A stretch of DNA of 64,000 bases, from the NCBI GenBank assembly GCA_951406725.2, contig OX597814.1, positions 8,990,001 through 9,054,000 of the forward strand, in the 5' to 3' direction. Both the position numbers and the translations under genes were made by a program. Source of the stretch: Octopus vulgaris. Its lineage: Eukaryota. Below the pieces are notes generated by a model that saw only the letters and a list, made by a program, of their open reading frames with translations, was not told the DNA's origin and did no database searches. The first letter of the stretch is position 1; every line of letters begins with the position of its first letter. This document shows, piece after piece, positions 9,114-63,649 of the stretch.

Positions 9114-9560
9114 ATTGCAGATGTGCTACCAGTGCCGGTGGCATGTCAAAACTCTGCTTGTGAAGACCCGTTGAGGCAAGTGAGGATCAGAATCGAAATC
9201 GATCAATGGAAATTGCAGATGTGTTACCAGTGCCGGTGGCATGTAAGAGAACTTTCCGTTTCGCGACCGTTGCCAGCACCGCCCCGTTTCGTGTCCGTTG
9301 CCAGCCTCGCCTGGCACATAAAAAGCACAATCCGTTCGTGGCCGTTTGCCAGCTCTGTCTGGCACCAGTGCGGGTGGCACGTAAAAAGCACCCACTACAC
9401 TCACGGAGTGGTTGGCGTTAGGAAGGGCATCCAGCCGTAGAAACACTGCCAGATTTGACTGGGCCTGATGAAGCCTTCTGGCTTCACAGACCCCAGTAGA
9501 ACCGTCCAACCCATGCTAGCATGGAAAGTGGACGCTAAACGATGATGATGATGATGATGA
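9114..9560 (+). mobile_element. RTE 3'-UTR fragment with (GAT)n tail
   Basis: ggcgttaggaagggcatccagccgtagaaac...ggacgctaaacgatgatgatg; reverse-complement match to 14645-15115. Confidence 0.85.
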
Positions 9561-9700
9561 TATATATATATATATGTATATATATGTATATATATATACA
9601 TATATATATATATATGTATATATATGTATATATATATACATATATATATATATGTATATATATGTATATATATATACATATATATATATGTATATATATG

Positions 9701-9746
<46 letters not shown>

Positions 9747-9850
9747 CATATATATATATATGTATATATATGTATATATATATACATATATATATATGTA
9801 TATATAGATCAATAAATGGTGGGGTTGTGTTGACCGCACGTGGAGAAATG

Positions 9851-11033
9851 ATAAGTAAGGAAAAATTTTTTAAAAATGCAGAATGCTCAAATGAAAGAAA
9901 ATTTTAATAAAATGAGAAATTGATAAAATATATAAATATATGTTTATTCAACCGGTTTTCGTCATTGTATGACTTGTCAAGAATATTTATGTTTTAAAAG
10001 TTTTTTAAAAATTAGAAAGGGGAAAAAAGGGGAATTGCATTGTTTTTTGTAAAAGAATAATGATAAAAATGTACAAAAATTAAAAAATAAGTTCTCCGAT
10101 ACATTGCGAGTTCGTTGTGTATCTTGAGTTTTATGGTTGTTTACGATAAAATTACCTTGAGGTGTTAAGATCCAAAGGGATTAAGAGCATGTGTTGTGTT
10201 GTGTTGTTAAATTCAGCATGTTTGCAGGACAGGAAGTAGTAGTAATTGTGGTCCTGGTTCTTCAGTTCCTGTGTTGTGAGTAAGGGGAGACAACTCTTTT
10301 GAGTTCTTCAATAAAACCCAAATTATAAAACTATCATTTTAGCTTCATTTGCATTATCTTTTTTATATAATTGCTTGATAACTTAACTTTCAGATTTTAA
10401 CACTTTATTTATATTATTTTCTAATAATATAAATCTGCATAGACAATTGCATTTCAAATTCTCATATCATTTATAATAAAAATGATAGTAATAACAACAA
10501 TAGTAAAAATGATATTTAAAGAATATAAGTTTTAGCTTGAAGTGATGAATGCATGGTATCTTTATATATTTGTGTTAGTCCATCCATGAAGAGTGAGGTA
10601 GAGAAAGGAAGTTTGATCAACGAGGAGTTTGCATATTAAGTTGTGTTTGGAATTTTTCAATAAAGAGATTCTCCTTGTTAATTCTCTCCTGTGTGGTGAT
10701 CCCGTCTTTACATTGGTAGAAGGGGAATATATAGAATTTGGGGTTTAAGTCTTTAGCACATGAGTCTAAGTGGTCACTCAGTGGAATTTGTCGGTATTCC
10801 GGGAGATTTATTTGTTCTTTATGCACCGTTACTCGTTTACGTAACGGGAGACTCGTTTGTCCAACATAATTATGTTGGCAACCAGCGCATGTGAGAACGT
10901 AGATAAGGTTCTCGGAGGAACAGGAGAAGTTAGTCTTGATTTTAAACTTCGTACCTTGTTTGAAGGTAAATTCAGAGCCTTCAAGTAGAAAGGGGCAGGT
11001 ACCACAGTTTGAGCGTGCACATTTTTTTACTGT
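9851..11033 (-). repeat. Inverted copy of the PLE 3' end (GIY-YIG domain plus 3'UTR)
   Basis: Near-identical reverse complement of 13366-14550; ORF 10617..11120 repeats the C-terminus of ORF 11682..13781. Confidence 0.95.
9945..9985 (-). ncRNA. Variant minimal hammerhead-like motif (copy in inverted arm)
   Basis: Reverse complement of 14415-14455. Confidence 0.55.
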
Positions 11034-11681
11034 GCACCGATTAGAACCTTCAAGAACCTCCCATACACTAGAAATTATCCCCCCCTCAAGGCTCCCCTCC
11101 CTCACACTAATAACAAACAAGGCATCCTACCCACACCGATACATATAAGACCCACCCAACGAACCCCCTATAGTCCACCCATCCAACAACCACATTCCTA
11201 CCACATCTCCTACAGATCTCCAAACCCTCACATCCCACACGAACCCAATCACCACAACTACATACCCCCCTACATCCCCCCATACAATCTACCAGACACA
11301 CACCCACAAACCCATCGCATTTCTCACAAATCCTTACACCATCGCATCCCATACCAACACAAATACGACAACTACCTACCCCCTCCAACCTCCCCACCCA
11401 AAAACACTCCTACACATACAACCAGAACTTTAACAAAGAATACACCCCTTACCTCAACAACCATTTTTTAGACAGAGGGGAAAAATACAAACACCACCGC
11501 TAACACAGACCCAAAATAAGAAAACAAAAATTATAAACCTCTCCAGCAAAACACTGACACCAACCCAAATCAACATCCTAGCAAGAGGTTTGAAATTCAC
11601 ACCCACCCCAAGAACACCCAACCCCCGGAGGTCAAGGATGACGTTTCTGAATTCTGCAGAAAACTTCGCCTAACAGAAGCT

Positions 11682-13781
11682 TTGACAGATATCAACAATG
11701 GGGACGATTCATTGATCAGAAATAAAAGCAACTTCCTACCACCAAAAGGGAGAAATAAAACACTGGACGATTTCTGTAAACACATCCAGAGTCTCCCCTT
11801 TACCCCAAGCAAAACCAAGGTAAAATCCAATTTCAGTAAGGAAGAATGGGAAAACCTACGTGACATACAACTGGATAAAAACCTCACCATCAAAGAAGCG
11901 GACAAAGGGAGTGCTGTGGTCCTTATGGACACGGAATTTTATAAACACCTAGTGTTCTCCATGCTTAACAATAACATTTTCTATGAGGTTATTAACAACT
12001 ACAAACAGCAAAAAACAATCAGAAACCTCACCACACTCATACGCCAACACGGTCAGGGACTCACAGAAAAAGAAAGGGATTATATCACCATTTTCAAATG
12101 CAAGCCCAGCCTTTTTTATGGCCTTCCTAAAATCCATAAAAACAAATACATCACCGAAGCCTGCAAACTCTCCACTGACATCCACATCAACATCAAAGCA
12201 CCGGAGGACCTAAAACTAAGGCCCATCGTGGCTGGTACCTCCTGTGAAACACACCGCCTGAGTAACTTTCTAGACATCCTTTTGAAACCTTTCCTTACCC
12301 ACATCAAAAGTTTCATTAGGGATGATCTGGACATGCTCAAACACCTCCCGAAAACAGTTAACGAGGAGGCACTCCTGGTATCCTTTGATGTCATCAACCT
12401 CTACACCAACATTCCACATGAGTATGGTATAGAGGCAATTGACTTCTGGCTAGAAAAACACCCAGAGACATTCCCTGACCGCATTAACAAGTCTTTTATT
12501 ACAGAATCTCTTAAGTTCATTCTGACAAACAATTTTTTTCTCTTCGACGACACACACTACCGTCAAAAATGTGGCATTGCGATGGGTACCAAGGCTGCAC
12601 CAGTCCTTGCGAACCTCATAATGGGTTACTTCGAACTGTCACTCTATGAAATATCAAGCCAGAAATTTGGACATGTTTTCCACACCTACCTAATGGAAAA
12701 CTGGAAAAGGTATTTAGATGATTGTTTCATCATATGGAAAGAACCTTATGAAAAACTCCTGGAATTCAAAACCATACTAAACAACATACATCCCAACATC
12801 CAATTCACTATGGAATTAAGCAAACATCATCTCCCATTCCTTGATCTCCTAATTATAAAAACACCTAAGAACCAAATCATAACAGACATCTACCACAAAC
12901 TTACAGACTCACAACAATACCTCCTCTTTAGTTCATGCCACCCAAAACACACCAAGACAAATATCCCATTCAATTTAGCTAAAAGGGTATGCACCATTGT
13001 CTCGGATCCAAAAACACGAGAAATACGCCTTCAAGACCTCAAAAAAACACTATTACAACGTCAATATCCCTCCACCCTTATAGAGTATGGAATAAAACGC
13101 GCCAAAGAACTAGACAACACTACACTGAAAACCACCCAACCTAACACCACACACAACCTCAAAATACTTCCATACATTTCCACCCACAACCCCAAAAATA
13201 TCGAAGCATACACCACAATCATACAAAACCTCAGTCTACTGTCAACAGACCCAAAAATGAAAAACATTATAAATACACACAAAATCCTCAAATGCAAAAG
13301 GCAACACAAATCTTTAAAAAAACTCTTGACAAATGCCAAACTTCACACACCACATCCACCCCCAACAGTAAAAAAATGTGCACGCTCAAACTGTGGTACC
13401 TGCCCCTTTCTACTTGAAGGCTCTGAATTTACCTTCAAACAAGGTACGAAGTTTAAAATCAAGACTAACTTCTCCTGTTCCTCCGAGAACCTTATCTACG
13501 TTCTCACATGCGCTGGTTGCCAACATAATTATGTTGGACAAACGAGTCTCCCGTTACGTAAACGAGTAACGGTGCATAAAGAACAAATAAATCTCCCGGA
13601 ATACCGACAAATTCCACTGAGTGACCACTTAGACTCATGTGCTAAAGACTTAAACCCCAAATTCTATATATTCCCCTTCTACCAATGTAAAGACGGGATC
13701 ACCACACAGGAGAGAATTAACAAGGAGAATCTCTTTATTGAAAAATTCCAAACACAACTTAATATGCAAACTCCTCGTTGA
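11682..13781 (+). CDS. PLE reverse transcriptase / GIY-YIG endonuclease; the real N-terminus lies upstream across a frameshift near 11612-11616
   Basis: Motifs IKEADKGSAVV, FYGLPKIHK, LRPIV, SFDVINLYTNIP, GIAMGT, RYLDD, LPFLD, C-x4-C-x2-C, NLIYVLTC..YVGQT..LRKR..H; upstream frame reads IINLSSKTLT..ILARGLKFTPTP. Confidence 0.93.
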   Translation: MTDINNGDDSLIRNKSNFLPPKGRNKTLDDFCKHIQSLPFTPSKTKVKSNFSKEEWENLRDIQLDKNLTIKEADKGSAVVLMDTEFYKHLVFSMLNNNIFYEVINNYKQQKTIRNLTTLIRQHGQGLTEKERDYITIFKCKPSLFYGLPKIHKNKYITEACKLSTDIHINIKAPEDLKLRPIVAGTSCETHRLSNFLDILLKPFLTHIKSFIRDDLDMLKHLPKTVNEEALLVSFDVINLYTNIPHEYGIEAIDFWLEKHPETFPDRINKSFITESLKFILTNNFFLFDDTHYRQKCGIAMGTKAAPVLANLIMGYFELSLYEISSQKFGHVFHTYLMENWKRYLDDCFIIWKEPYEKLLEFKTILNNIHPNIQFTMELSKHHLPFLDLLIIKTPKNQIITDIYHKLTDSQQYLLFSSCHPKHTKTNIPFNLAKRVCTIVSDPKTREIRLQDLKKTLLQRQYPSTLIEYGIKRAKELDNTTLKTTQPNTTHNLKILPYISTHNPKNIEAYTTIIQNLSLLSTDPKMKNIINTHKILKCKRQHKSLKKLLTNAKLHTPHPPPTVKKCARSNCGTCPFLLEGSEFTFKQGTKFKIKTNFSCSSENLIYVLTCAGCQHNYVGQTSLPLRKRVTVHKEQINLPEYRQIPLSDHLDSCAKDLNPKFYIFPFYQCKDGITTQERINKENLFIEKFQTQLNMQTPR

Positions 13782-14414
13782 TCAAACTTCCTTTCTCTAC
13801 CTCACTCTTCATGGATGGACTAACACAAATATATAAAGATACCATGCATTCATCACTTCAAGCTAAAACTTATATTCTTTAAATATCATTTTTACTATTG
13901 TTGTTATTACTATCATTTTTATTATAAATGATATGAGAATTTGAAATGCAATTGTCTATGCAGATTTATATTATTAGAAAATAATATAAATAAAGTGTTA
14001 AAATCTGAAAGTTAAGTTATCAAGCAATTATATAAAAAAGATAATGCAAATGAAGCTAAAATGATAGTTTTATAATTTGGGTTTTATTGAAGAACTCAAA
14101 AGAGTTGTCTCCCCTTACTCACAACACAGGAACTGAAGAACCAGGACCACAATTACTACTACTTCCTGTCCTGCAAACATGCTGAATTTAACAACACAAC
14201 ACAACACATGCTCTTAATCCCTTTGGATCTTAACACCTCAAGGTAATTTTTTCGTAAACAACCATAAAACTCAAGATACACAACGAACTCGCAATATATC
14301 GGAGAACTTATTTTTTAATTTTTGTACATTTTTATCATTATTCTTTTACAAAAAACAATGCAATTCCCCTTTTTTCCCCTTTCTAATTTTTAAAAAAACT
14401 TCTTAAAACATAAA

Positions 14415-14455
14415 TATTCTTGACAAGTCATACAATGACGAAAACCGGTTGAATA
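14415..14455 (+). ncRNA. Variant minimal hammerhead-like motif in PLE 3'UTR
   Basis: tattc-TTGACAA-gtca-tacaa-tgac-GAAA-accggtt-gaata: stem I tattc/gaata, stem II gtca/tgac, palindromic stem III, non-canonical core. Confidence 0.55.
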
Positions 14456-14560
14456 AACATATATTTATATATTTTATCAATTTCTCATTTTATTAAAATT
14501 TTCTTTCATTTGAGCATTCTGCATTTTTAAAAAAATTTTTCCTTCCTTATGCATATATAT

Positions 14561-14640
<80 letters not shown>

Positions 14641-14644
14641 TTAT

Positions 14645-15197
14645 ACATCATCATCATCATCATCATCATCGTTTAGCGTCCGTTTTCCATGCTAGCATGG
14701 GTTGGACGGTTCTACTGGGGTCTGTGAAGCCAGCAGGCTTCATCAGGCTCAATCAAATCTGGCAGTGTTTCTACGGCTGGATGCCCTTCCTAACGCCAAC
14801 CACTCCGTGAGTGTAGTGGGTGCTTTTTACGTGCCACCCGCACAGGTGCCAGACAGTGCTGGCAAACGGCCACGAACGGATGGTGCTTTTTATGTGTCAC
14901 CGGCACAAGGGCCAGGCGAGGCTGGCAACGGACACGAAACGGGGCGGTGCTGGCAACGGTCGCGAAACGGAAGGTTCTCTTACATGCCACCGGCACTGGT
15001 AACACATCTGCAATTTCCATTGATCGATTTCCATTCTGATCCTCACTTGCCTCAACGGGTCTTCACAAGTAGAGTATCGACATGCCACCGGCACTGGTAA
15101 CACATCTGCAATTTCCATTGATCGATTTTGATTCTGATCCTCACTTGCCTCAACAGGTCTTCACAAGTAGAGTTTTGTGTCCCAAGAAGGGAAGGTA
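14645..15197 (-). mobile_element. RTE 3'-UTR fragment with internal duplication of about 110 bp
   Basis: Same terminus as other RTE copies; catgccaccggcactggtaacacatctgc...tcttcacaagtagagt occurs twice. Confidence 0.85.
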
Positions 15198-16487
15198 TAC
15201 GTCCACTGATATTTAAATATATATATATAGGTACTGCGAATGTTTACATACACATCAAACGTGAATGTATATATGTTTGTTGTTACACAGGAGTATACAT
15301 ATGGATGTGTAGATGTGAATATAATTTTCCTAGTTTGTTGGTGAGAGATTAAATAGGAATATAATGGTAATGTAACAATATTAGACTTCTTACGATGTGA
15401 TGTTATCTGTATAAGTTATAAGGTGTTATTTTGATTATATATCTTAGAATATTAGCATATTTTGACTTTTTACAATTAATTTCTTATAATTTAATTAATA
15501 AAAACCTCTGTTAACTTAGTATATATGTATTTATACGTCTTTTGATAGACAAACATAAACGGGTATTTTGTATTTTATAATTTAGTAAATATTTGAATAG
15601 AAACATAGTGGTAATGATATAGACATTTTTAGTTCTAAGATATTTTGTTTACGAAAAATACGGTGTTATTTTAATTATGTACCTTATGATAAATTACATT
15701 CTCCATCTAGGTATAATTATATGTATGATTGCATATACGGATTTATGGACATATGTGAGTGGATCTGTTTGTAAGCATTTATGTGTGTGTATAGGTGGGA
15801 TAGTACCTCTTATGTTATTTATGATTTGGTTGTGTATGTGGGTATGTGTGTGTGTGTGTGTAAACATGTGACTATGTCTGTATGTGCGCACGTTTGTGAG
15901 TGTACGTGTGTATGTTTCCTAGCTAACTAACCATAAAATATCTATTGTAATTCAAATTTAAAAGTATAGGCCAATTGAATGCATCTGTGGAAATTAATAC
16001 CATGTAAACAGAAGAATTTGACTGATTGCATATATATGCAGATATCTATTTGCCTTGAATAATACTATGGTGGTATTTATTGGTCTTCAGTGTTGCTACT
16101 ATATTGTTAATTGTGCGATATATGTATTGTTTTATTAGTAATGATGTTATTAGTAGTAAGAATATTGATATTGATAACATTATTGTTATTGATAACGGTA
16201 TTGGTATTAACATTATTGACTTTTTGTAAAGTAACACAAATTAATATAATGAACTGTTTACTATATATGTCTGCATTAAGTATGAATATATCTGTTGCAA
16301 TTTCTTAATATTGGTTGAGGAACTGTAACATTCAATATAGAACATTATTATGTTTATTGATATATATTGATTTGTATTATTTATATTATTATGTATATGT
16401 ATATGTGTATATATATAAGGATATGAGTATATATGCACTCATATTTATATGTAAATGATTTTTGGGTATGTACTCATACTTACATTA

Positions 16488-16605
16488 GAATCTCCGAAGA
16501 GGCCGTAAGATATTTTTGTTAATGTCTCATTTATACCTGCAATATATGGCTAATATAGGTTAAATGAGACATACTTATCTGCATGGCCGAAACAGCTGTC
16601 AGTTA
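16488..16605 (+). ncRNA. Hammerhead-like motif with long stem II (end of a non-coding PLE remnant at about 15230-16795)
   Basis: CCGAAGA-ggcc...ggcc-GAAAC-agct-GTC; internal 12-bp hairpin atgtctcattta/taaatgagacat; one core substitution versus CUGANGA and a weak stem I. Confidence 0.65.
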
Positions 16606-16949
16606 TAATGTATATGTATTTTTATATCTTTTTATATTTATTTAGTTATATCTCATTATAATGATTGTAATTATTGTACTGTATTAATGTCTAATCTTAA
16701 TGCTCTTGTGTAGTGTTTTAATAAAGTATGTGATTCGGTATTATCTGATAGTTGATGAATGATTTAGATATATTTCTCCATTTTCTTATTTTGTATATAT
16801 ATATGTGTATATATATATATATAATTAATTAATAAGGGTGAGAGAATTAGATACTAATTTAATAGTATATTTATTCAACACCAAGTGGCCTAGTGCTCCG
16901 AGAAACCTGGATTATTATAATATTTTATAACATATTATAATATTTTTAC

Positions 16950-17409
16950 AAAATAAATATAAGAGAGTGGTCACTATATTGCTCACTCTAGCACCAGTTA
17001 ATCCAAAAGGTTTCAACCACGAAAATACATGTTTCCCATGAAAGTCAGTACGATTGTTAGCTCACACGGACAGGGCAAATAAAAAATAACAAAAATACAG
17101 ATTATTTTGGGACAATTGTTTCGCTATTAATGAATTAAATGTAATTTTACTTACAAAAAAAATCCATTTGTAGCTCGTCAGCCAAAACTAGCTACAAATG
17201 GATTTTTTTTGTAAGTAAAATTACATTTAATTCATTAATAGCGAAACAATTGTCCCAAAATAATCTGTATTTTTGTTATTTTTTATTTGCCCTGTCCGTG
17301 TGAGCTAACAATCGTACTGACTTTCATGGGAAACATGTATTTTCGTGGTTGAAACCTTTTGGATTAACTGGTGCTAGAGTGAGCAATATAGTGACCACTC
17401 TCTTATATT

Positions 17410-17415
<6 letters not shown>
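16950..17415. repeat. Long palindrome, 225-bp arms with 16-nt spacer
   Basis: 16950-17174 is the reverse complement of 17191-17415; spacer tcgtcagccaaaacta. Confidence 0.95.
17105..17187 (-). ncRNA. Canonical type I hammerhead ribozyme motif
   Basis: Minus strand: ttttgg-CTGACGA-gcta-(44 nt)-tagc-GAAAC-aatt-GTC-ccaaaa; all core positions present; predicted cut between 17111 and 17110. Confidence 0.85.
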
Positions 17416-17467
<52 letters not shown>

Positions 17468-17564
17468 GTATGTATATATATATAACGTCAATCCAAACAT
17501 GAAAACACAGCAACGCGAGGATGTGGAACAAGTATAGTTCAGGAAAGGAAAGAAAGAAAGAGGA

Positions 17565-17598
17565 TTTAACGTTTCGAGCGGAGCTCTTCGTCAGAAAC
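17565..17598 (-). ncRNA. Minimal PLE-type hammerhead motif
   Basis: ttt-CTGACGA-a-gagc-tcc-gctc-GAAACGTT-aaa; palindromic AACGTT in place of stem III. Confidence 0.75.
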
Positions 17599-17949
17599 AG
17601 AAAGAGGAAAGGTCCAAGGAAGGGAAGATGGAGAAAGAAAATCGCTAATGATATACATGCGGTCACATATTGACTGACCAGAAGGGAATGGGTGAAGAAA
17701 AAGTTCTTTCAAAGACAGGAGAGTACAAGAGAAGGAGGTATGTGTGGGTATGTGCATGCGTGCAGATCTGTGTGTGTGTGTGTGAGTGTAATGATAGTGT
17801 GTGTGTGGCTGTGGCTGTGGCTTTTTATCTATGTGTGGTGGGCTTTGTATAGTTTAAGGTCATAAGAAGAATTTATAGTAGGTGTGGCTGCCTGTTGTGT
17901 GTCTACCTACACATGTGCTTAGGAGAATGGTCAGTGAAAGGTACTGGTA

Positions 17950-19110
17950 GTTAGAAGTATGTGTGTGTGCGTGTATGTATATGTAGTGTGTGTGTGTTTT
18001 GTTTGCAGTGTGTGTAGGTATGTATATGTGTGTATGAGTGTATGCGTAGGGGTTGTGTGTGGGGAGTAAATGTACTTTACTCTGTGTGTGTGTGTGCTTG
18101 TATGTGCGTTGTATACATGAATGTATAATTGTATGTGTGTATATATTAGTGTGTGCTCTGTGTGTATGGGAGGTATGTGTGGGTTCATTTGCGTGTGCGT
18201 GTGTGTATGTATGTGCATGTAGTTGTGTGTGCAGGTATGTGTGTGTGCATGTGTGGGTATGTAGGTGTATATACGTGTATGTGTGGGGTTGTGAGTGTTA
18301 GGTAAGTGTGCATTCATGTGCGTGTGTACATGCGTATGTGTGCACATGCTTGTGCATTCATGTGTGTGTGTCTGTGTCTATATGTGTATGCCTATGTGTA
18401 TGCGTCTGTGTGTGAATGCATATATTGTCAATGTATGTGTATGTGAATTTGTGGGTGTTTGGGGTTTGTGTAGGTGTAATGTGCGTACCTGTGTGTATGC
18501 ACGTGCGTGTGCTTGTATGCATGTGCTTACATGTATGTATGTGTATGTGCGTGTGTGTTTGTGCCCATGTGTGTATAATTGTGTGTATGTGTATTGTGTG
18601 TATGGACGTATATGTGCAAATCTGTGCTAGTGTGTGTGTGTGTACATACATGTGTATATGTGTGTGCGTGTGTGTATGTGCATGAGTGCATGTGTATATG
18701 TGCGTGCGTGTGTATATGTGTATGTGAACATGGAAATGTGTGTCGGGTTGTGTGCATTTTTTGTGTGTATGTGCGTGTGCTTGAGTATGTGGTTGTATGT
18801 GGTTGTGTGTACGTTTATATGTGTGTGTGTATAAAGGTATGTGTCTGTGTGTGCGTGGGGTTGTGTGGGATAAGTATCTGTGCATTCCTGTGCATGTGTA
18901 TGTGTGTGTGTACGTTTGTGCACATGTGTGTGTGTACGCGCATATGTGTGTGTGCACGTGGGTCTATGTGGGTGTGTGTGTATGTATGTGTGTGTGGAAG
19001 TATGTGTGTGTATATGTGCATGTATGTATGTTGTATGTGTGTGGTGTGTGGGAGGTATATGTGCATTCATGGATATGTACGTATGTGTATGTATGTGTGC
19101 GTGTATATAG
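17950..19110. repeat. Degenerate (TG)n/(TATG)n low-complexity tract
   Basis: Directly visible; source of many spurious H/T and C/V ORFs. Confidence 0.9.
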
Positions 19111-19674
19111 AAATAAAAACAATAATTTATAAAAATAATAAATTATAAACAACAAAAAACAAAAATTATAAAAACAATAAAATATAAAAAAGGTTGAAAG
19201 GAGATAAGGAAGTTAATGCAATGTAAAGGCACAATTACAAGTAAAAAAGAAGAATGAGAAAAGAAATTAAGTTGCTTGTTGCGGGAGGTGTAGAGGCAGT
19301 CACTAGGAGGAGGGGTTGTGTTTAGTCCGTGGGGGATAGTTGTCTTTAAATTAAAGATATGGTGCTGTTCCAAGCGGAGTCTTGAGTGTGGGGATCCGTG
19401 GTGTACAGCAAGGCCAAAGACAGAGATGTTAGAGGGGGAATGGTTGGTCAAGCAGAAGTGACGGGCGACGGGAGTGTTCAAACATAGCCGAACATCCCTT
19501 AAGTGTTTGGTGAACCGGTCAGCCAGTTGGTGGCCCGTCTGACCTACATAGAGTTTCCCACAGAGGTTGCATTTAATGTAGTATTTGAGGCTAGAAGAAG
19601 TACAAGAAAAGGAAATTCTAATGTGCACAGTTTGCTGGTTAGAACCTGTGATAGAAGACCGCTTTACCGGTCAC

Positions 19675-20578
19675 TCTTTGCAAAACCTGTCCCTGTTTGG
19701 ATTATCCTTGTACAGAGCCCATCTGGGCTCCCATTTGCGCCATGAACAGGGATTAATATTCTCTCTTCGCTCCTTTGCATCACATGGGCTCAACTCTCCT
19801 CCCCTCTTTCTCTAACCTCTTCCCCTCCCTCCTACTCCCTCCCACCCACCTCTCTTGCTCTGACTCCTACTTCACTTCACTCCTACTCTCTTTCTCTCTT
19901 CTCTCATACCAATCTTCCCCTTCCCCCTTCATCGTCAACCCTCCCCCATAAGTCCACCCCACCCCTACATATTCCTATCCCACCTTCCCTATCCTTCCTA
20001 TCCCATCCCTTACACCCTCTCCCACATACCCTCTGCCTACCCACATACCCCAACTCTGCCCCAACCCTCAGCCTAACCCACACCCCACCTGCGCTTTCCC
20101 CACTATTGCCTTCCCCACCTCCCAACACCATCATACCACACAACACATCACATCACAACACACCACCACACACACACCAGCACTGACCAATTCCCATCCC
20201 CACACTTTCACACCTACACATACACACACACACACACACGTCAAGATCACCAGCCCTCTTTCACATGCACATACGTACTCTCTTACAGACACGCGCACCT
20301 TCGTTTTAGGATCACTACTATTTTGTTATCTCCCTTACTTCTTAGCTCTCATGTCTGACCCTTCTGTCCAGCATTCGCCATGATAGATCGGTAGCCATTA
20401 CACACATTTTTTGTCTCTCCTTATTTCTCTCCTTGTTTCTTTCTCTGTTTCTTTCAGTGGAAGAGCGCAGGCTCGAAACGTTAAAGACTTTTTCACTTCC
20501 CGAGTGTTATACTAATACATCTGTTTGTTTTCTACACCACCTGTCTTCGTCTTTTGTTTTTTTCGCAAACTCTCCCTA
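19675..20578 (+). mobile_element. PLE 3' fragment from a different family
   Basis: LQNLSLFGLSL..LRHEQGLIFSLRSFASHGLNS matches the GIY-YIG C-terminus; pyrimidine/CA-rich UTR; hammerhead-like motif at 20451. Confidence 0.7.
20451..20487 (+). ncRNA. Degenerate minimal hammerhead-like motif
   Basis: cttt-CAGTGGA-a-gagc-gcag-gctc-GAAACGTT-aaag; stems intact, core mutated. Confidence 0.55.
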
Positions 20579-20599
20579 TATATATATATATATATAATC

Positions 20600-33250: not shown

Positions 33251-33436
33251 AAAATAAGTACCATACTTTAAAACAGTAAGTACTGAGGTTGATTCACTTG
33301 ACTAAAAATTCTTCAAGGCAGTGCTGCTCCAGCATGGACAGAGAGTAGCGATGAAACAAACTGAAGATATTTGAATATTGTAATTCTTATTTCTATACCA
33401 AATAATTTGAACAGAATTAAAATGGTAAATTCTTAC

Positions 33437-33682
33437 CTGTACTGATGGCAGGAATTGCAACTGATGTATAAGACTTTTCTTCAAGAACTGCCAAACAATT
33501 TCGAACAGCTCTTGAAAGGTAATCCATTTCCTGATCCCTTCCATTATTCCAAACGGGTCCAACAGTATGAATGATAGTCTTGCATTTGAGTTTACCAGCA
33601 TTAGTTGACACTACTTCTCCAGGTTTCAGTTCACTCCTTTCTTCCATAATCGTGTTAGATTCAGTTTGAATTTCAAACCCAC
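33437..33682 (-). CDS. PARP14: Exon of PARP14-like gene: second part of macrodomain
   Basis: ttgcag acceptor and g|gtaaga donor; encodes GFEIQTES..GEVVSTNAGKLKCKTIIHTVGPVW..LSRAVRNCL..SVAIPAISTG; joins the upstream exon in phase 1. The symbol is a family-level inference. Confidence 0.85.
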
Positions 33683-33804
33683 CTGCAAAGATATTTGCCT
33701 TGTTATGTTCCTGTTTAATACATGTTAATACTACTACTACTACAACAACTAATACTAACTACTACTACTACTACTACTACATCATCGTCGTCGCCGTCGC
33801 CATT

Positions 33805-45040: not shown

Positions 45041-45083
45041 GATCTAAAAAGAAACATTAACTATAAAAAATGGTATTACTAAC

Positions 45084-46619
45084 CTTTCTGCACAATGGCT
45101 GCAGCAACCCCTCCCTTATAACTCAGTCTGCCATTTGCAGCATTAACAATAGCAGCTGTGTCCAGAGTCGTGATGTCACCTTCCCTCAACACTATTTCAC
45201 AGTTCTTATACACAAAATTAAGTATTTCTTCTGTTTCATTTCCTAAAGCTAGATTTAATGATATTATGCTCTCAGATTTCTTCTGCATTTCACACAAGAA
45301 ATTGTTTCCTTCTTCACTTTCCAGAAATTCTTGAAATCCAAACATTTCAAAGTTTACTTCTTTTGAACTGATATCTTTTCTTAAATTTTCTATAAATGTT
45401 TCCATTTTCCTAATTTGGTTTTGTGTTCCTTCCAGGTGTAACTTATTATCTTTGAGACACACATTCTTTATTTTATTTTTCTCACCAAAGTCATTGATTT
45501 CCTGTTCTATGAACTCTTTAAGAAAGAGGAAATGTTCAAGAGGCATCGATATATAAGATTCGTAAATTAAAGATTGCTCAAAGTCATCAATTTTGCTTTT
45601 TATATCATTAACTACAGCATCAACAGCAACAATAGAATTTTCACCAATAAAACAGAAATCTGGAAACTCTTCTTTTAGACTTTCAACAAATGTCAGCCAC
45701 TTTCCATGATTTGGAGTATCCTTAATTTTGTCCACAAAATCCAGTGTATTGGCAACAAAAGTTTCTTTCATGATTTCTTCCAGAAGTGAAAGATGTGTTT
45801 TATCACTTGCATAAAGTATTACTGAATCACCATCACCCGTTTCCCATGAACCAATACATTTCTTGTTTCTCAGTTTTTCATCAAGATATTCTTTCACTGA
45901 TTTTTTATTTATGATTATTCCAGTATTTAAAGGCAAACACAATTCAGATTTTACAATTGACCGAAGAATTTCATACATATTCTTTTGACAATTAGTTACT
46001 TCGGAATATTGGCCTTCAAAAATAACTTTGTTACTTTCTGCTGTAACTTTTAGACCTTCAAATTGTCCTTCTGCCTGCTCAAAAAATCCGAGACCAGATA
46101 GAATACGTCTTTCATGAATATTTAAATCATCCTCACATTCCATTCTAAGATTATCCAAAAGTCTTTTTTTCATTTTAATTACATTACTTTTATCAAATCC
46201 CAGAATATGAGCTTTATGATATCGGAAATCAAAATAAAAATACATATCATCATCTTCACTTTTAAATGTTCTAACAATGTCTTCAAAAATTTCATCTGGA
46301 ACATCAAGAGTTTCAACAGTAATGGAATTTAATAAATCTTTCAAACATTTTTCAATTTGCTCAGAATATTCTTCAGAATATTTTAATTTCAGTGTATTAA
46401 TCTTGGAATCTTCCCAAAGAACTTCAGCCAAAGTCTTTAATTGGTCATTAACTTCAGTTCTATGTTTCTTTAAAAAGGTCAGATGGAACTTGGAAGGTAG
46501 TAAATAGTCATGGACTTGATGTCTTGAAATGGTATTTTCTTCAGATGGTTTCCAGAATGGTTGAACATCTAACTTCACATTTTGCAGTCGATGTCGTCTT
46601 CTACAAACGTCCAGCACAA
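45084..46619 (-). CDS. PARP14: Large (1536 nt) exon of PARP14-like gene: RRM end, KH-like repeats, start of macrodomain
   Basis: Open 524-aa frame; polypyrimidine-ttttag acceptor at 46621-46620; donor g|gttagt at 45083; ends IVLREGDITTLDTAAIVNAANGRLSYKGGVAAAIVQKG. The symbol is a family-level inference from domain order. Confidence 0.88.
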
Positions 46620-46824
46620 CTAAAATTATGGAAAAGTAAAAAGATAAAATCATTTCATTGGTGAGGGATTAGGGGTGAGCTGGGGAGTTCAGTGGGTAAA
46701 GACAGAAAAGTATTTGAAGACAGTTATATGTTATTATTATAATACATTAGCAAAAACAAAAAAATATAATCAACATTTAACTGATACTAAGTAAACACTA
46801 TCTCTATTAATGATAATAAATACT

Positions 46825-48782
46825 AGAAACATCACAGGAATGGTTTCAAATTTTGGCACAAGGCCAGCGATTTCAGGAGGCTGGCTAAGTCAATTACATC
46901 AACCCCAGTGCTCAACTGGTACTTCTTTTATTGACCATAAACATCACTGGAATTTTGGTTTCAAATTTTGGCACAAGGCCAGCAATTTCAGGAGAGTGGC
47001 AAAGTCAATTACATCAACCCCAGTGCTCAACTGGTACTTATTTTATTGACCATAAACATCACTGGAATTTTGGTTTCAAATTTTGGCACAAGGCCAGCAA
47101 TTTCAGGAGTGTGGCTAAGTCAATTACATCAACCCCAGTGCTCAACTGGTACTTATTTTATTGACCATAAACATCACTGGAATGTTGGTTTCAAATTTTG
47201 GCACAAGGCCAGCAATTTCAGGAGAGTGGCAAGTCAATTACATCAACCCCAGTGCTCAACTGGTACTTATTTTATTGACCATAAACATCACTGGAATTTT
47301 GGTTTCAAATTTTGGCACAAGGCCAGCAATTTCAGGAGAGTGGCTAAGTCAATTACATCAACCCCAGTCCTCAACTGGCACTTATTTTATTGACCATAAA
47401 CATCACTGGAATTTTGGTTTCAAATTTTGGCACAAGGCCAGCAATTTCAGGAGAGTGGCTAAGTCAATTACATCAACCCCAGTCCTCAACTGGCACTTAT
47501 TTTATTGACCATAAACATCACTGGAATGTTGGTTTCAAATTTTGGCACAAGGCCAGCAATTTCAGGAGAGTGGCTAAGTCAATTACATCAACCCCAGTGC
47601 TCAACTGGTACTTATTTTATTGACCATAAACATCACTGGAATGTTGGTTTCAAATTTTGGCACAAGGCCAGCAATTTCAGGAGAGTGGCTAAGTCAATTA
47701 CATCAACCCCAGTGCTCAACTGGTACTTATTTTATTGACCATAAACATCACTGGAATTTTGGTTTCAAATTTTGGCACAAGGCTAGCAATTTCAGGAGAG
47801 TGGCTAAGTCAATTACATCAACCCCAGTGCTCAACTGGCACTTATTTTATTGACCATAAACATCACTGGAATTTTGGTTTCAAATTTTGGCACAAGGCTA
47901 GCAATTTCAGGAGAGTGTCTAAGTCAATTACATCAACCCCAGTCCTCAACTGGTACTTATTTTATTGACCATAAACATCACTGGAATTTTGGTTTCAAAT
48001 TTTGGCACAAGGCTAGCAATTTCAGGAGAGTGGCTAAGTCAATTACATCAACCCCAGTGATCAACTGGTACTTATTTTATTGACCATAAACATCACTGGA
48101 ATTTTGGTTTCAAATTTTGGCACAAGGCTAGCAATTTCAGGAGAGTGGCTAAGTCAATTACATCAACCCCAGTGCTCAACTGGTACTTATTTTATTGACC
48201 ATAAACATCACTGGAATGTTGGTTTCAAATTTTGGCACAAGGCCAGCAATTTCAGGAGAGTGGCTAAGTCAATTACATCAACCCCAGTGCTCAACTGGTA
48301 CTTATTTTATTGACCATAAACATCACTGGAATGTTGGTTTCAAATTTTGGCACAACGCCACCAACTTCTTGAGAGTGACGAAGTCAATTACATCAACCCC
48401 AGCGCTCAACTGGTACTTATTTCATTGACCATAAACATTGGTTTCAAATTTTGGCACAAGGCCAGCAATTTCAGGAGAGTGGCTAAGTCAATTACATCAA
48501 CCCCAGTGCTCAACTGGTACTTATTTTATTGACCATAAACATCACTGGAATGTTGGTTTCAAATTTTGGCACAAGGCCAGCAATTTCAGGAGAGTGTCTA
48601 AGTCAATTACATCAACCCCAGTGCTCAACTGGTACTTATTTTATTGACCATAAACATCATTGGAATTTTGGTTTCAAATTTTGGCACAAGGCCAGCAATT
48701 TCAGGAGAGTGGCAAAGTCAATTACATCAACCCCAGTACTTAACTGGTACTTATTTTGTTGACCATAAACATCACAGGAATA
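46825..48782. repeat. Tandem array of about 17 units of 115 bp, derived from a SINE 3' half
   Basis: Unit starts 46931, 47046, 47161 ... 48759; contains ttggcacaaggccagcaattt..caattacatcaaccccagtgctcaactggtacttattttattgacc, the reverse complement of the type B SINE tail. Confidence 0.92.
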
Positions 48783-60960: not shown

Positions 60961-60996
60961 GAGAATAATAGGAATGAAAAAAACTTACCTGGTTTT

Positions 60997-61138
60997 TAAC
61001 ATTATTTACATTTGACAGATATTTGTCCTCATCTTGTTTGTTGTTAACATAACGTTTCGGCTGATATACCCTCCAGCCTTCATCAGGTGTCTTGGGGAAA
61101 TTTCAAACCTGGGTTCTCATTCCTGAGGTGTTTTTCGA

Positions 61139-61171
<33 letters not shown>

Positions 61172-62003
61172 GAGTGTTCAGGTCACTGCTTGGAATCGAA
61201 CTTGGAATCTTGAGGTTAAACACTACACTCTTAAACACTATGCCATATGCCCATGGGCAATTATGGAGTGAATTTTAGGGCTTATAAATCTAATATTTTC
61301 CTTAATACCGGTTCCCATATGCTGCTCATATCTGCCCTTGGTCTGCTTCAGAGGTTGTTGTGTCCTAGCATATGTGCTGCTTCTTTTAGTTTTCATATTT
61401 TCCAGTGGCATTCTCTGTGTATTATTTTAGCTTCATCCCAAAGGGGGAGGTGGTCTCTATTTTTCCATACATAATCAACTATACCTGATTTATCAATATC
61501 TCCTCATGTCACAGCTTTGCGATGTTCGTCTACCCTTATTTTGAGGGAGTGGCATGTTTCATATTTGTATAACCTACCACAGCTACATGGGATGGAGTAC
61601 ACGCAGTCTTTGATCATATTCTCTTCTATTGGTGGTTTTACTCGAAGGAGATATTTGCAAAGTGTTGTATTACTCTTGAACACTGTCCTGATGTCATATG
61701 GGTCACACATCTTTTGTATCTTTCCGGAGAGGCTTTTCACATAGGGTAGACAAACTGTGGACAGTTTATCGGTTTCATCCTCTCTCTTCTTCATAATTGG
61801 AGTGGATAGTATATAGTTTTGGGGTAGTTGTTGCTTAACAGATTGTTATTGAGCTTGATCATTTCTTCGTGGAGTGTATCAGGATCACTACTTATATTCT
61901 TTGCACAATGTTTTAGGCACTGAGCAATCCCTTTCTTTACACTGTATGGATGGTGAGAATTGAAGTTGAGGTATCGTTCAGTAAAGGTCAGCTTGTGGTA
62001 TAC
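60997..62003 (-). mobile_element. PLE 3' fragment (left arm of inverted pair)
   Basis: ORF 61504..61794 CLPYVK..CVYSIPCSCGRLY..ET...L..RV.EH; homologous to 62165-63212. Confidence 0.88.
61046..61091 (-). ncRNA. Minimal PLE-type hammerhead motif
   Basis: acac-CTGATGA-a-ggctg-gagggtatat-cagcc-GAAACGTT-atgt. Confidence 0.75.
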
Positions 62004-62908
62004 ACATCTTTATACTCTGGCCCCACCAGGAATATGTCCAAGTGCTGTTAGATCATGTGAACTCAATAACGCCATCCATACAGTTCACAAGGGAAAACGA
62101 AAAAGACAATCAGCTAGCATTCCTGGACGCATTAATAACACACACCAAGTATGGATTCAGGACATCCGTATACCGCAAGCCGACCTTCACTGGACGATAC
62201 CTCAACTTCAATTCCCACCATCCATACAGTGTAAAGAGAAGGATTACTCAGTGCCTAAAACATTGTGCAAAGAATATAAGTAGCGATCATGATACACACC
62301 ACGAAGAAATGATCAAGCTCAATAACAATCTATTAAGCAACAACAACCCCAAAACATACTATCCACTCCAATTCTGAAGAAAAGAGAGGATGAAATCAAT
62401 AAACTGTCTGCAGTCTGTCTACCCTATGTGAAAAGCCTCTCCGAAAAGATACAAAAGATATGCAGCCCATATGATATCATAACAGTATTCAAGAGTAATA
62501 CAACACTTCTCAAAACCACCAATAGAAGAGAATATGACTAAGAATTGTGTGTACTCCATCCCATGCAACTGTAGTAGGTTATACAAAGGCGAAACATGCC
62601 GCCCCCTCAAAATAAGGGTTGAGGAACATCGCAAAGCTGTGACATGAGGAGATATTGATAAATCGGGTATAGCTGATCATGTATGGAAACATGGAAACCA
62701 CCGCCCCCTGTGGGATGAAGCTAAAATAATAGACAGAGAATGCGACTGGAAAATATGAAAACTAAAAGAAGCAGCACATATGCTAGGACACAACAACCTC
62801 CTAAGCAGACCAAGTGCAGATATGAGCAGCATATGGGAACCGGCATTAAAGAAGGATAGGGAAATATTAGATTTATAAGCCCTAAAATTCACTCCATAAT
62901 TGCCCCAG

Positions 62909-62981
62909 GGCATATGGTGTAGTGGTTAAGAGCGTGGGCTATTAACCCCAAGATTCCGAGTTCGATTCCAAGCAGTGACCT
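62909..62981 (+). other. tRNA-like cassette (Pol III A/B boxes) inside the PLE 3'UTR; decayed mirror copy at 61180-61252
   Basis: tggtgtagtggttaagagcg (A box/D arm), ggg-ctattaa-ccc anticodon-like arm, gagttcgattcc (B box); acceptor stem does not pair. Confidence 0.7.
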
Positions 62982-63119
62982 GAACACCACCACCACCACT
63001 ACTATTATTATTACTACTACTAATAATAATAATGATAATAATAATATCAACAATAATAATAATAATAATATAGAAAAAATACCTTAGGAATGAGAACCCA
63101 GTTTTAAAATTTCCGCAAG

Positions 63120-63162
63120 ACACCTGAAGAAGGCTGGAGGGTATATCAGCCGAAACGTGTTA
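63120..63162 (+). ncRNA. Minimal PLE-type hammerhead motif with a 3-nt deletion near the cut site
   Basis: acac-CTGAAGA-a-ggctg-gagggtatat-cagcc-GAAACG-tgtt. Confidence 0.6.
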
Positions 63163-63649
63163 ACAAGAAACAAGATGAGGACAAATATCCGTTGAATGTA
63201 AATAATTTAAATAATGTACAGAATTCCTCATCTCTTAAATATAGGGCAGGTTGTCTCCCCCTATCCTCACCCCAATGGATTGGGTTGTTTGCTCCAGCAA
63301 ATTACCAAATATTCTCTTGGTGATAATTCTTTGAAAACTTCCTGTGGAAATAGGGTTTTTAGCTGTTTGTTGTTTGAACGATATGCATGTGTGTAGGTAG
63401 GGAGATTGTGGGTGTAACAAAATGTTCTTCTGTTATGTTGGTATGTAATTCATGAGACCTGCATTTTTGAGTTAATTGCTATCTACTTTGTAATGGTGCT
63501 GTCTTTACTTTGTAATTGCTGCTGCTGCAACTCCTGCTGTTGTTGTTGTGTGTGGTGTTGTTGATTGAGGATGTCCTCTCAACTTGCCCCAAACCAATAT
63601 GAGTTGTGGTGACATGATGAGGTTACAAAAGTGCTGCATTGGAAAGTGT

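Follow-up and report, generated by a model that had tools for sequence, protein, structure and literature searches.

Closest described systems

In Neptune- and Nematis-type Penelope-like elements (PLEs) the reverse transcriptase (RT) and the endonuclease (EN) are joined by a CX2-5CxxC linker; Hydra-type PLEs have a CxCX5C linker, CxxC and CxH motifs around the E and N of the EN, and (TA)n as the target (Craig et al. 2021, PMC8557442). In PAc, a Poseidon PLE of Anolis, the tail arises from two internal RT start sites, described by Frangieh et al. (2024, PMC11167929) as a signature unique to PLEs. Both strands are cut at AT-rich DNA, and ribozyme catalysis is given there as dispensable for insertion in vitro. 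Metazoan retrozymes without long terminal repeats (non-LTR retrozymes) are non-coding tandem repeats of low GC content, with one type I hammerhead per unit; their mobilisation by PLEs was proposed by Cervera and de la Pena (2020, PMC7229834) and by Li, Clavereau and Pollet (2026, bioRxiv 10.64898/2026.07.22.740005). The locus described here bears six hammerhead-like motifs at positions 9810-20580 of a 64,000-nucleotide (nt) stretch of Octopus vulgaris, hereafter the window (GenBank assembly GCA_951406725.2, contig OX597814.1, positions 8,990,001 to 9,054,000, forward strand). It is probably a chance stack of insertions that entered TA runs independently of one another: four come from coding PLE families (A, B, D, E), and the fifth from a 536-nt retrozyme (C) that would have been copied in trans by a Hydra-type enzyme. 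C is a new, very young retrozyme family; the stack is made of known kinds of element.

Families A and E resemble the Neptune PLEs of PMC8557442 in the C-terminal GIY-YIG domain and the CX2-5CxxC linker, and B resembles the Hydra PLEs of the same paper in the CxCX5C linker and the CxxC and CxH motifs. Common to the present families and to those two clades are (TA)n targeting, inverted 5'-truncated copies and a tail at one end. B differs from the Hydra elements described there (below 3 kb, tail 30-40 bp) in a 3' non-coding part that alone measures about 2.6 kb and in a tail of about 175 nt. With PAc the families appear to share the tail from two internal RT start sites and the cutting of both strands at AT-rich DNA, and insertion without ribozyme catalysis fits the spread of families with deviant cores. 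PAc is unlike C in clade, in autonomy and in its short tail (PMC11167929).

C agrees with the retrozymes of PMC7229834 and bioRxiv 10.64898/2026.07.22.740005 in its non-coding, low-GC tandem form with one type I hammerhead per unit. Its unit of 536 nt compares with a typical length of about 300 nt (range 51-972, Li et al., bioRxiv 10.64898/2026.07.22.740005). Published retrozymes are linked to PLEs by co-occurrence and by homology of pseudo-LTRs (pLTRs); C is linked by its insertion footprint, namely tailed and untailed ends, inverted arms and a TA target. For the former, RNA cleavage and circles have been demonstrated (PMC7229834; bioRxiv 10.64898/2026.07.22.740005); for C they are predicted. 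By title and opening of the abstract, no published description of these families, or of a tail footprint in retrozymes, was found; supplements may list mollusc Hydra families. The mover of animal retrozymes has been proposed, not demonstrated. In C, a very young family with two exactly mapped putative priming sites and a candidate clade, Hydra, an in vitro priming test becomes directly possible. The cluster itself is of little importance, and C is its useful part.

Motifs and insertions at the locus

All six motifs reported in an earlier note on this DNA were found by inspection where that note had placed them, with differing stem II and with the palindromes it gave: 9945-9985 (minus strand) and 14415-14455 (plus) with AACCGGTT, 16482-16612 (plus) with ACAGCTGT, 17104-17188 (minus) with ACAATTGT, 17564-17598 (minus) and 20451-20486 (plus) with ACGT. 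The first two belong to one family and lie on the arms of one inverted repeat (arms of 1033 nt, 100% complementary); the six motifs therefore represent five insertions, families A to E. A seventh, half motif without a core, at 17243 (plus), is part of the inverted arm of C. Where the note had counted about five different PLE ends, the number holds and the kind is corrected: four come from coding PLEs, and C is a protein-free retrozyme. The motifs do lie, as it had said, at the ends of segments bounded by (TA)n, every outer 3' end in the window adjoining a TA run.

The motifs are predicted hammerheads of type I kind from five families of the PLE system. The type I core (C3-U4-G5-A6-N7-G8-A9, G12-A13-A14-A15.1, U16.1-H17, three helices) is fully matched by C and by window D; departures are U3-A8 in A, U4C in B, and U4A with A6U in window E. 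Helix II of about 50-90 nt and 8-nt palindromes in B and C; short helix II in A, D and E. In Rfam, no hammerhead match is obtained for the window at the gathering score or at E ≤ 10; the top matches, chance microRNA-like hairpins on the C inversion and the TA runs, were rejected. A relaxed hammerhead descriptor matches 4/6 motifs and gives 1 match in 200 dinucleotide shuffles of 9810-20580. B and E are missed by the descriptor because their cores or stems deviate. Folding of single strands against shuffles gives modest support to C (z -2.7), weak support to B (z -1.6) and none to the minimal motifs of A, D and E, as expected for motifs of dimer type.

Conservation among genomic copies is evident. 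Exact 17-21-nt ribozyme patterns number 469 for A, 77+54 for B and 817 for C genome-wide, with 0 for each reversed control. These counts are used in place of the candidate totals of similarity searches (1113, 1809, 1876, 5433, 5483), which are not copy numbers.

Retrozyme family C

Non-coding inverted insertion in the window, less than one unit per arm. The main arm (16820-17193, minus) carries the tailed end and comprises unit positions 454-536 followed by 1-291, counted from the predicted cleavage site. It contains the hammerhead (17104-17188, minus), with canonical core CUGACGA, 7-bp helix I, long helix II, palindrome ACAAUUGU and a GUC site. The inverted arm (17187-17415, plus) carries the untailed end, comprises unit positions 469-536 followed by 1-161, and lacks the first half of the ribozyme core. 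A TA run at 16797-16819 is common to the 3' ends of B and C, which meet tail to tail; another, at 17416-17484, is common to the untailed end of C and the 3' end of D.

Elsewhere, on many chromosomes, C forms head-to-tail arrays of the 536-nt unit, each unit having 32% GC and a single canonical type I hammerhead. In most arrays the identity between units of different chromosomes is 96-100%, and no open frame in the unit exceeds 69 amino acids (aa). The first 100 of the 817 exact patterns correspond to 26 loci on chromosome 1, from which about 200 insertions are extrapolated (26 loci per 100 units). C fits the sequence definition of a non-LTR retrozyme: two or more tandem units, each bearing a complete type I hammerhead, absence of coding capacity, and GC under 45%. 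Several members of the cluster had been suggested to be non-autonomous and retrozyme-like; such a member exists, and it is C only. Families B, D and E fail the definition (no coding capacity, tandem units), since coding copies of each were found; they are 5'-truncated 3' ends of coding PLEs, with RT and/or GIY-YIG upstream in copies elsewhere.

The 3' ends of C do not fall at the predicted cleavage site; they occupy two fixed internal positions, about 161 and 291 nt past it (130 nt apart). Of the insertions compared, 21 were chosen by similarity (13 inverted, 8 single-armed) and 25 others were taken in position order on chromosome 1 (17 inverted, 8 single-armed). The two-end rule is followed by 13/13 and 17/17 of the inverted ones, the arms standing back to back and each bearing a different one of the two ends (30/30 together). 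Terminal ends pass the TA-run test in 33/34 cases, against 5% of random positions. The paired ends show the tail signature of PLEs, with a longer tail.

One single-armed copy (L272:3901; 1/8 single-armed on chromosome 1) starts exactly at the predicted cleavage site, which matches the expectation for a self-cleaved linear template; chance may also account for it. Folded as a circle, the unit reaches -150.8 kcal/mol, against -104 ± 6 for shuffles.

C has two relatives. C2 forms young tandem arrays of a 493-nt unit, part of which is 61% identical to C; it was first met at L027:2085-2445 and is present in L228 and L219-L247. Its core carries U4C in 78/78 units (overlapping loci counted); the site is GUA, helix II has a U-U pair at its base, and the two-end rule, with a 100-nt tail, is followed in 6/6 inverted copies having both ends in view. 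C3 is the second relative. In helix I of the ribozymes of this clan, covariation is found at 6/6 pairs, among 4 sequences only. Another retrozyme, with a 359-nt unit, canonical core and ACCGGT helix III, is present at L096:2210-4610 (chromosome 1, 20002210-20004610) as an inverted array, with two full units on one strand and five on the other.

Fourteen sequencing runs, presumed to be RNA, contain the C unit; contig depth cannot rank expression, and nothing is concluded from them. Contigs of four of these runs cover 27-29 of 29 bins of the unit. The adjoining B stretch is covered widely in run X1, sparsely in X2 and X6 and not at all in X10, again with no conclusion drawn. Tandem DNA, like a circle, would give the 536-nt back-joint present in X10.

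Candidate enzyme and proposed mechanism

The PLE endonuclease would cut both strands at (TA)n. On each broken end, reverse transcription would then start from its own fixed position within the RNA of the element, so that the two arms stand back to back, one ending with the tail and the other without it. In the case of C the template would be multimeric or circular RNA produced by hammerhead cleavage, copied into 1-15 units per insertion. Insertion of the old D and E would have preceded that of the young A, B and C. Because TA remains on either side of every insertion, a later element can land beside an earlier one.

For the enzyme that moves C, one of Hydra type appears clearly favoured over the Neptune-type A. 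The Hydra-type PLEs found here (B, a sister family of B, and copies L248, L250, L176 and L256) have, like C, a ribozyme with long helix II and mostly an ACAnnTGT-type helix III. The tails measure 130 nt in C, 175 nt in B and 45 nt in A, so that B falls within the range of C and A outside it. At L199:2219-2230 an arm of C3 and a 5'-truncated Hydra-type frame meet head to head without an intervening TA run, possibly as one insertion made from two different RNAs.

Several observations weigh against this reading. The chimeric joint at L199 occurs in 1/30 loci of C3, and a deletion between two neighbouring insertions could also have produced it. When autonomous PLEs with sequence resembling C were sought, no Hydra-type PLE with nucleotide homology to C beyond short motifs came up. 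A PLE frame at the 5' junction was found in 0/25 chromosome-1 insertions of C. Variants common to units of one array are mosaic (L037, L179) and therefore lend no support to reading around a single template. The clades themselves (Neptune-type A, D, E; Hydra-type B) are assigned by motif, without a tree.

Mobilisation of C by A or by another Neptune-type enzyme is the alternative that survives best, and it is unlikely. A is young and abundant, has intact RT-EN frames and also targets (TA)n, and Li et al. (bioRxiv 10.64898/2026.07.22.740005), in whose sample retrozymes and PLEs occur together, give Neptune and Poseidon as the PLE groups most widespread in that sample. No sequence common to C and the 3' region of A was detected, however; the tail of 130 nt compares with one of 45 nt, the ribozyme of C is Hydra-like in architecture, and the window copy of A is 5'-truncated. 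The suggestion that the adjacent PLE mobilises C, which in this window means A, is accordingly not supported.

Growth of the C arrays from single monomers by unequal crossing-over, with no multimeric or circular RNA template, is quite improbable. It corresponds to the satellite-birth model discussed by Li et al. (bioRxiv 10.64898/2026.07.22.740005), and some variants are common to adjacent units only (L037, L179, L181), as local duplication or conversion would give. It is opposed by the frequently multimeric state of both arms of inverted insertions (L266, L276), by the near-identity of units between chromosomes, by the many window-like copies of less than 2 units, too little for easy expansion, and by the retention of the same two outer ends in arrays of any length.

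The trans-copying by a Hydra-type enzyme preferred here may be extended, though only tentatively and with confidence short of even. Hydra enzymes would carry the whole long-helix-II clan (C, C2, C3). A dimer would prime both ends of the cut TA run at two fixed RNA sites, each arm being read round its own RNA circle; two RNAs per insertion would be possible (C3 with a Hydra-type frame at L199; D with E), and three unrelated families would have spread with U4C. If this is true, the spread of U4C in three unrelated families would mean that cleavage in vivo is assisted by protein or dispensable.

Family B

Non-coding in the window; 3' part (15196-16796, plus) of the approximately 2.6-kb 3' non-coding region of a coding Hydra-type PLE. 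The hammerhead (16482-16612, plus) has a long helix II, core CCGAAGA (U4C), palindrome ACAGCUGU and a GUC site. Longer copies continue upstream into an RT and GIY-YIG frame with the motifs CNCRNRNQC (CxCX5C linker, in L166 and L251; first Cys pair changed in other copies), CSLC and CIH. B ends at TA, as in the (TA)n targeting of Hydra PLEs, and some copies bear a further 175-nt tail. The DKT motif was found only in the related family L250; the B copies fetched end before that region. By these motifs B is taken as a truncated coding Hydra-type PLE and not a retrozyme.

The core is CCGAAGA (U4C) in the 77 exact matches and canonical CUGAAGA in the 54. Copies nearest to the window copy have U4C and more diverged copies mostly U4, which suggests that the U4C lineage kept spreading. 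U4C is reported to lower activity in vitro with viroid infectivity retained (PMC3088659). Family-wide U4C (young B, C2, most D copies of the background grid described below) and A6U (E) were not met in the literature consulted on PLE hammerheads; supplements, or Lunse et al. 2017, may list such variants. The recurrent U4C cores are natural test cases for the need of cleavage by PLE hammerheads.

The inverted insertion L250:2182-4722 (minus) bears a long-helix-II hammerhead of its own (ACACGTGT), and its open Hydra-type RT-EN frame of 847 aa offers a candidate protein for in vitro work. At L027:2050-2090 about 30 nt of the B 3' region are fused directly to the 5' end of C2 in the same orientation, a joint that would resemble a product of template switching.

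Family A

Young PLE, Neptune-type by its linker. Main arm at 11035-14549 (plus), inverted 5'-truncated arm at 9807-11033 (minus), the latter ending in a PLE tail of about 45 nt (9807-9851) that is present at a single end. (TA)n-type tracts adjoin the outer end of the inverted arm (9560-9806) and the untailed 3' end (14553-14645). The open frame of 753 aa (11520-13781, plus) comprises RT (Pfam RVT_1, E 1e-7, above cut-off), a C-X4-C-xx-C linker (CARSNCGTC) and GIY-YIG (E 0.0016, below the Pfam cut-off). The hammerhead of the inverted arm (9945-9985, minus) has the U3-A8 core UUGACAA and palindrome AACCGGUU; for that of the main arm (14415-14455, plus) the pattern of core and helix II is the one with 469 exact genome copies. 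The U3-A8 variant, found in 17/17 copies read, has been reported among PLE hammerheads (PMC4209133). The motif must also have either G17 at the cleavage site or an extra A in GAAA.

Copies in the genome are 98-100% identical. Family A has the structure of EN-bearing PLEs: a pLTR or partial tandem, an inverted 5'-truncated copy, a tail at one end and a hammerhead in the pLTR. Compared with the longer copy L254, the window copy is missing its initial 1.65 kb, the part with the 5' pLTR and an upstream 339-aa frame, and is therefore an unlikely source of enzyme. In L254 the 339-aa and 753-aa frames lie about 500 nt apart, the spacer being C/A-rich with stops in three frames and near-identical in L255 and in window A; it may be an intron, a frameshift region or part of a two-frame design. 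The repeats that flank A (9114-9561 and 14646-15195) are abundant, inverted to each other, 96-97% identical, and face away from the TA run that A entered.

Families D and E

Old, abundant 5'-truncated PLEs; best other copies 83-90% identical. D (17485-19658, minus) has a GIY-YIG frame at 19143-19658 and a 3' region rich in CA; other copies show the same linkage of frame and 3' region. Its minimal hammerhead (17564-17598, minus) has the core CUGACGA with an extra A, and an ACGU palindrome; D-type cores read in the grid have U4C in 6/7. E (19659-20578, plus) and D stand head to head; copy L186 of E carries RT and EN upstream, and a TA run (20579-20596) follows the 3' end of the window copy. The minimal hammerhead of E (20451-20486, plus) belongs to a family whose core is mostly CUGU[G/A/U]GAA (A6U); the window copy has U4A in addition and is probably inactive. 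An E-type copy (L184) has the linker CSRPLCRTC (CX2-5CxxC), and the truncated frame of D does not reach the linker. Both families are classed by motif as old truncated PLEs of Neptune type. D and E join at 19658/19659 with no TA run between and are about 50% identical in the endonuclease; the joint is either an insertion from two RNAs or a deletion between neighbours.

Density of insertions

The background sample comprised 60 grid stretches of 10 kb (600 kb), searched with a panel of ten families. It contains 29 insertions, D accounting for 8 and E for 7, with a maximum of 3 insertions and 2 families per stretch; the number rises to 34-35 when 5-6 long-helix motifs are added. Four low-complexity matches to B in a first count were dropped as AT-rich noise, and B was recounted by a ribozyme-only query. 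The locus, in a window chosen for its look, holds 5 insertions in 10.8 kb, 8-10-fold above the grid (Poisson P 2-5e-4), so that about 54-126 such stretches are expected in 2.8 Gb. Insertion count and TA-run count are correlated in the grid (Spearman 0.43), in part circularly, because every insertion has TA on its flanks. Common TA runs join B, C and D end to end, and insertion of PLEs next to older PLE copies has been reported (PMC6765202).

The pile-up probably represents a rare chance combination of known element kinds and not a special locus. Three further observations count on the opposing side. The grid sample is small and the family panel incomplete. Flanks of other copies are enriched 0.7-3.2-fold for other families, which makes nesting alone a weak force. 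The presence of three rare young families within 7.6 kb (about 130-470 ribozyme-bearing copies of A and B, about 200 insertions of C) is unusual; their co-occurrence is the most unusual part, and a larger census could shift the estimate.

That the locus is a real hotspot of insertion, owing to open chromatin or an unusual DNA structure, or else a cluster retained because its ribozymes cooperate, for example in cutting a host or read-through transcript, is very unlikely: for it speak the 5 insertions where no grid stretch has more than 3 and the closeness of the three young families, and against it the number of such stacks expected by chance, the position of motifs on both strands with differing helix III palindromes (from which cross-family dimers are not predicted), the broken core of the E copy, the mostly U4C cores of families B and D, and the single further insertion from the ten-family panel in the remaining 53 kb of the window. 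Such a stack, though rare, is to be expected, and it is not a functional ribozyme cluster. Of the hotspot named in the earlier note the high local count is retained, and it fits the chance tail of an element-rich genome; the special site is not. Its view that repeated insertion at (TA)n stacked diverse ribozyme families is borne out.

Other features of the window

A sixth hammerhead family (CTGATGAA/CTGAAGAA, ACGT) occurs at 60991-63211, where an inverted PLE insertion with RT- and EN-like frames carries it on each arm; the 600-kb grid contains 6 insertions of this family. A 115-nt tandem repeat occupies 46827-48781, with 17 copies of 95% identity. Open frames at 45079-46668 (minus) and 33417-33758 (minus), with the motifs AIVNAAN and SVAIPAISTG, resemble what are presumably exons of a host macro-domain (PARP14-like) gene.

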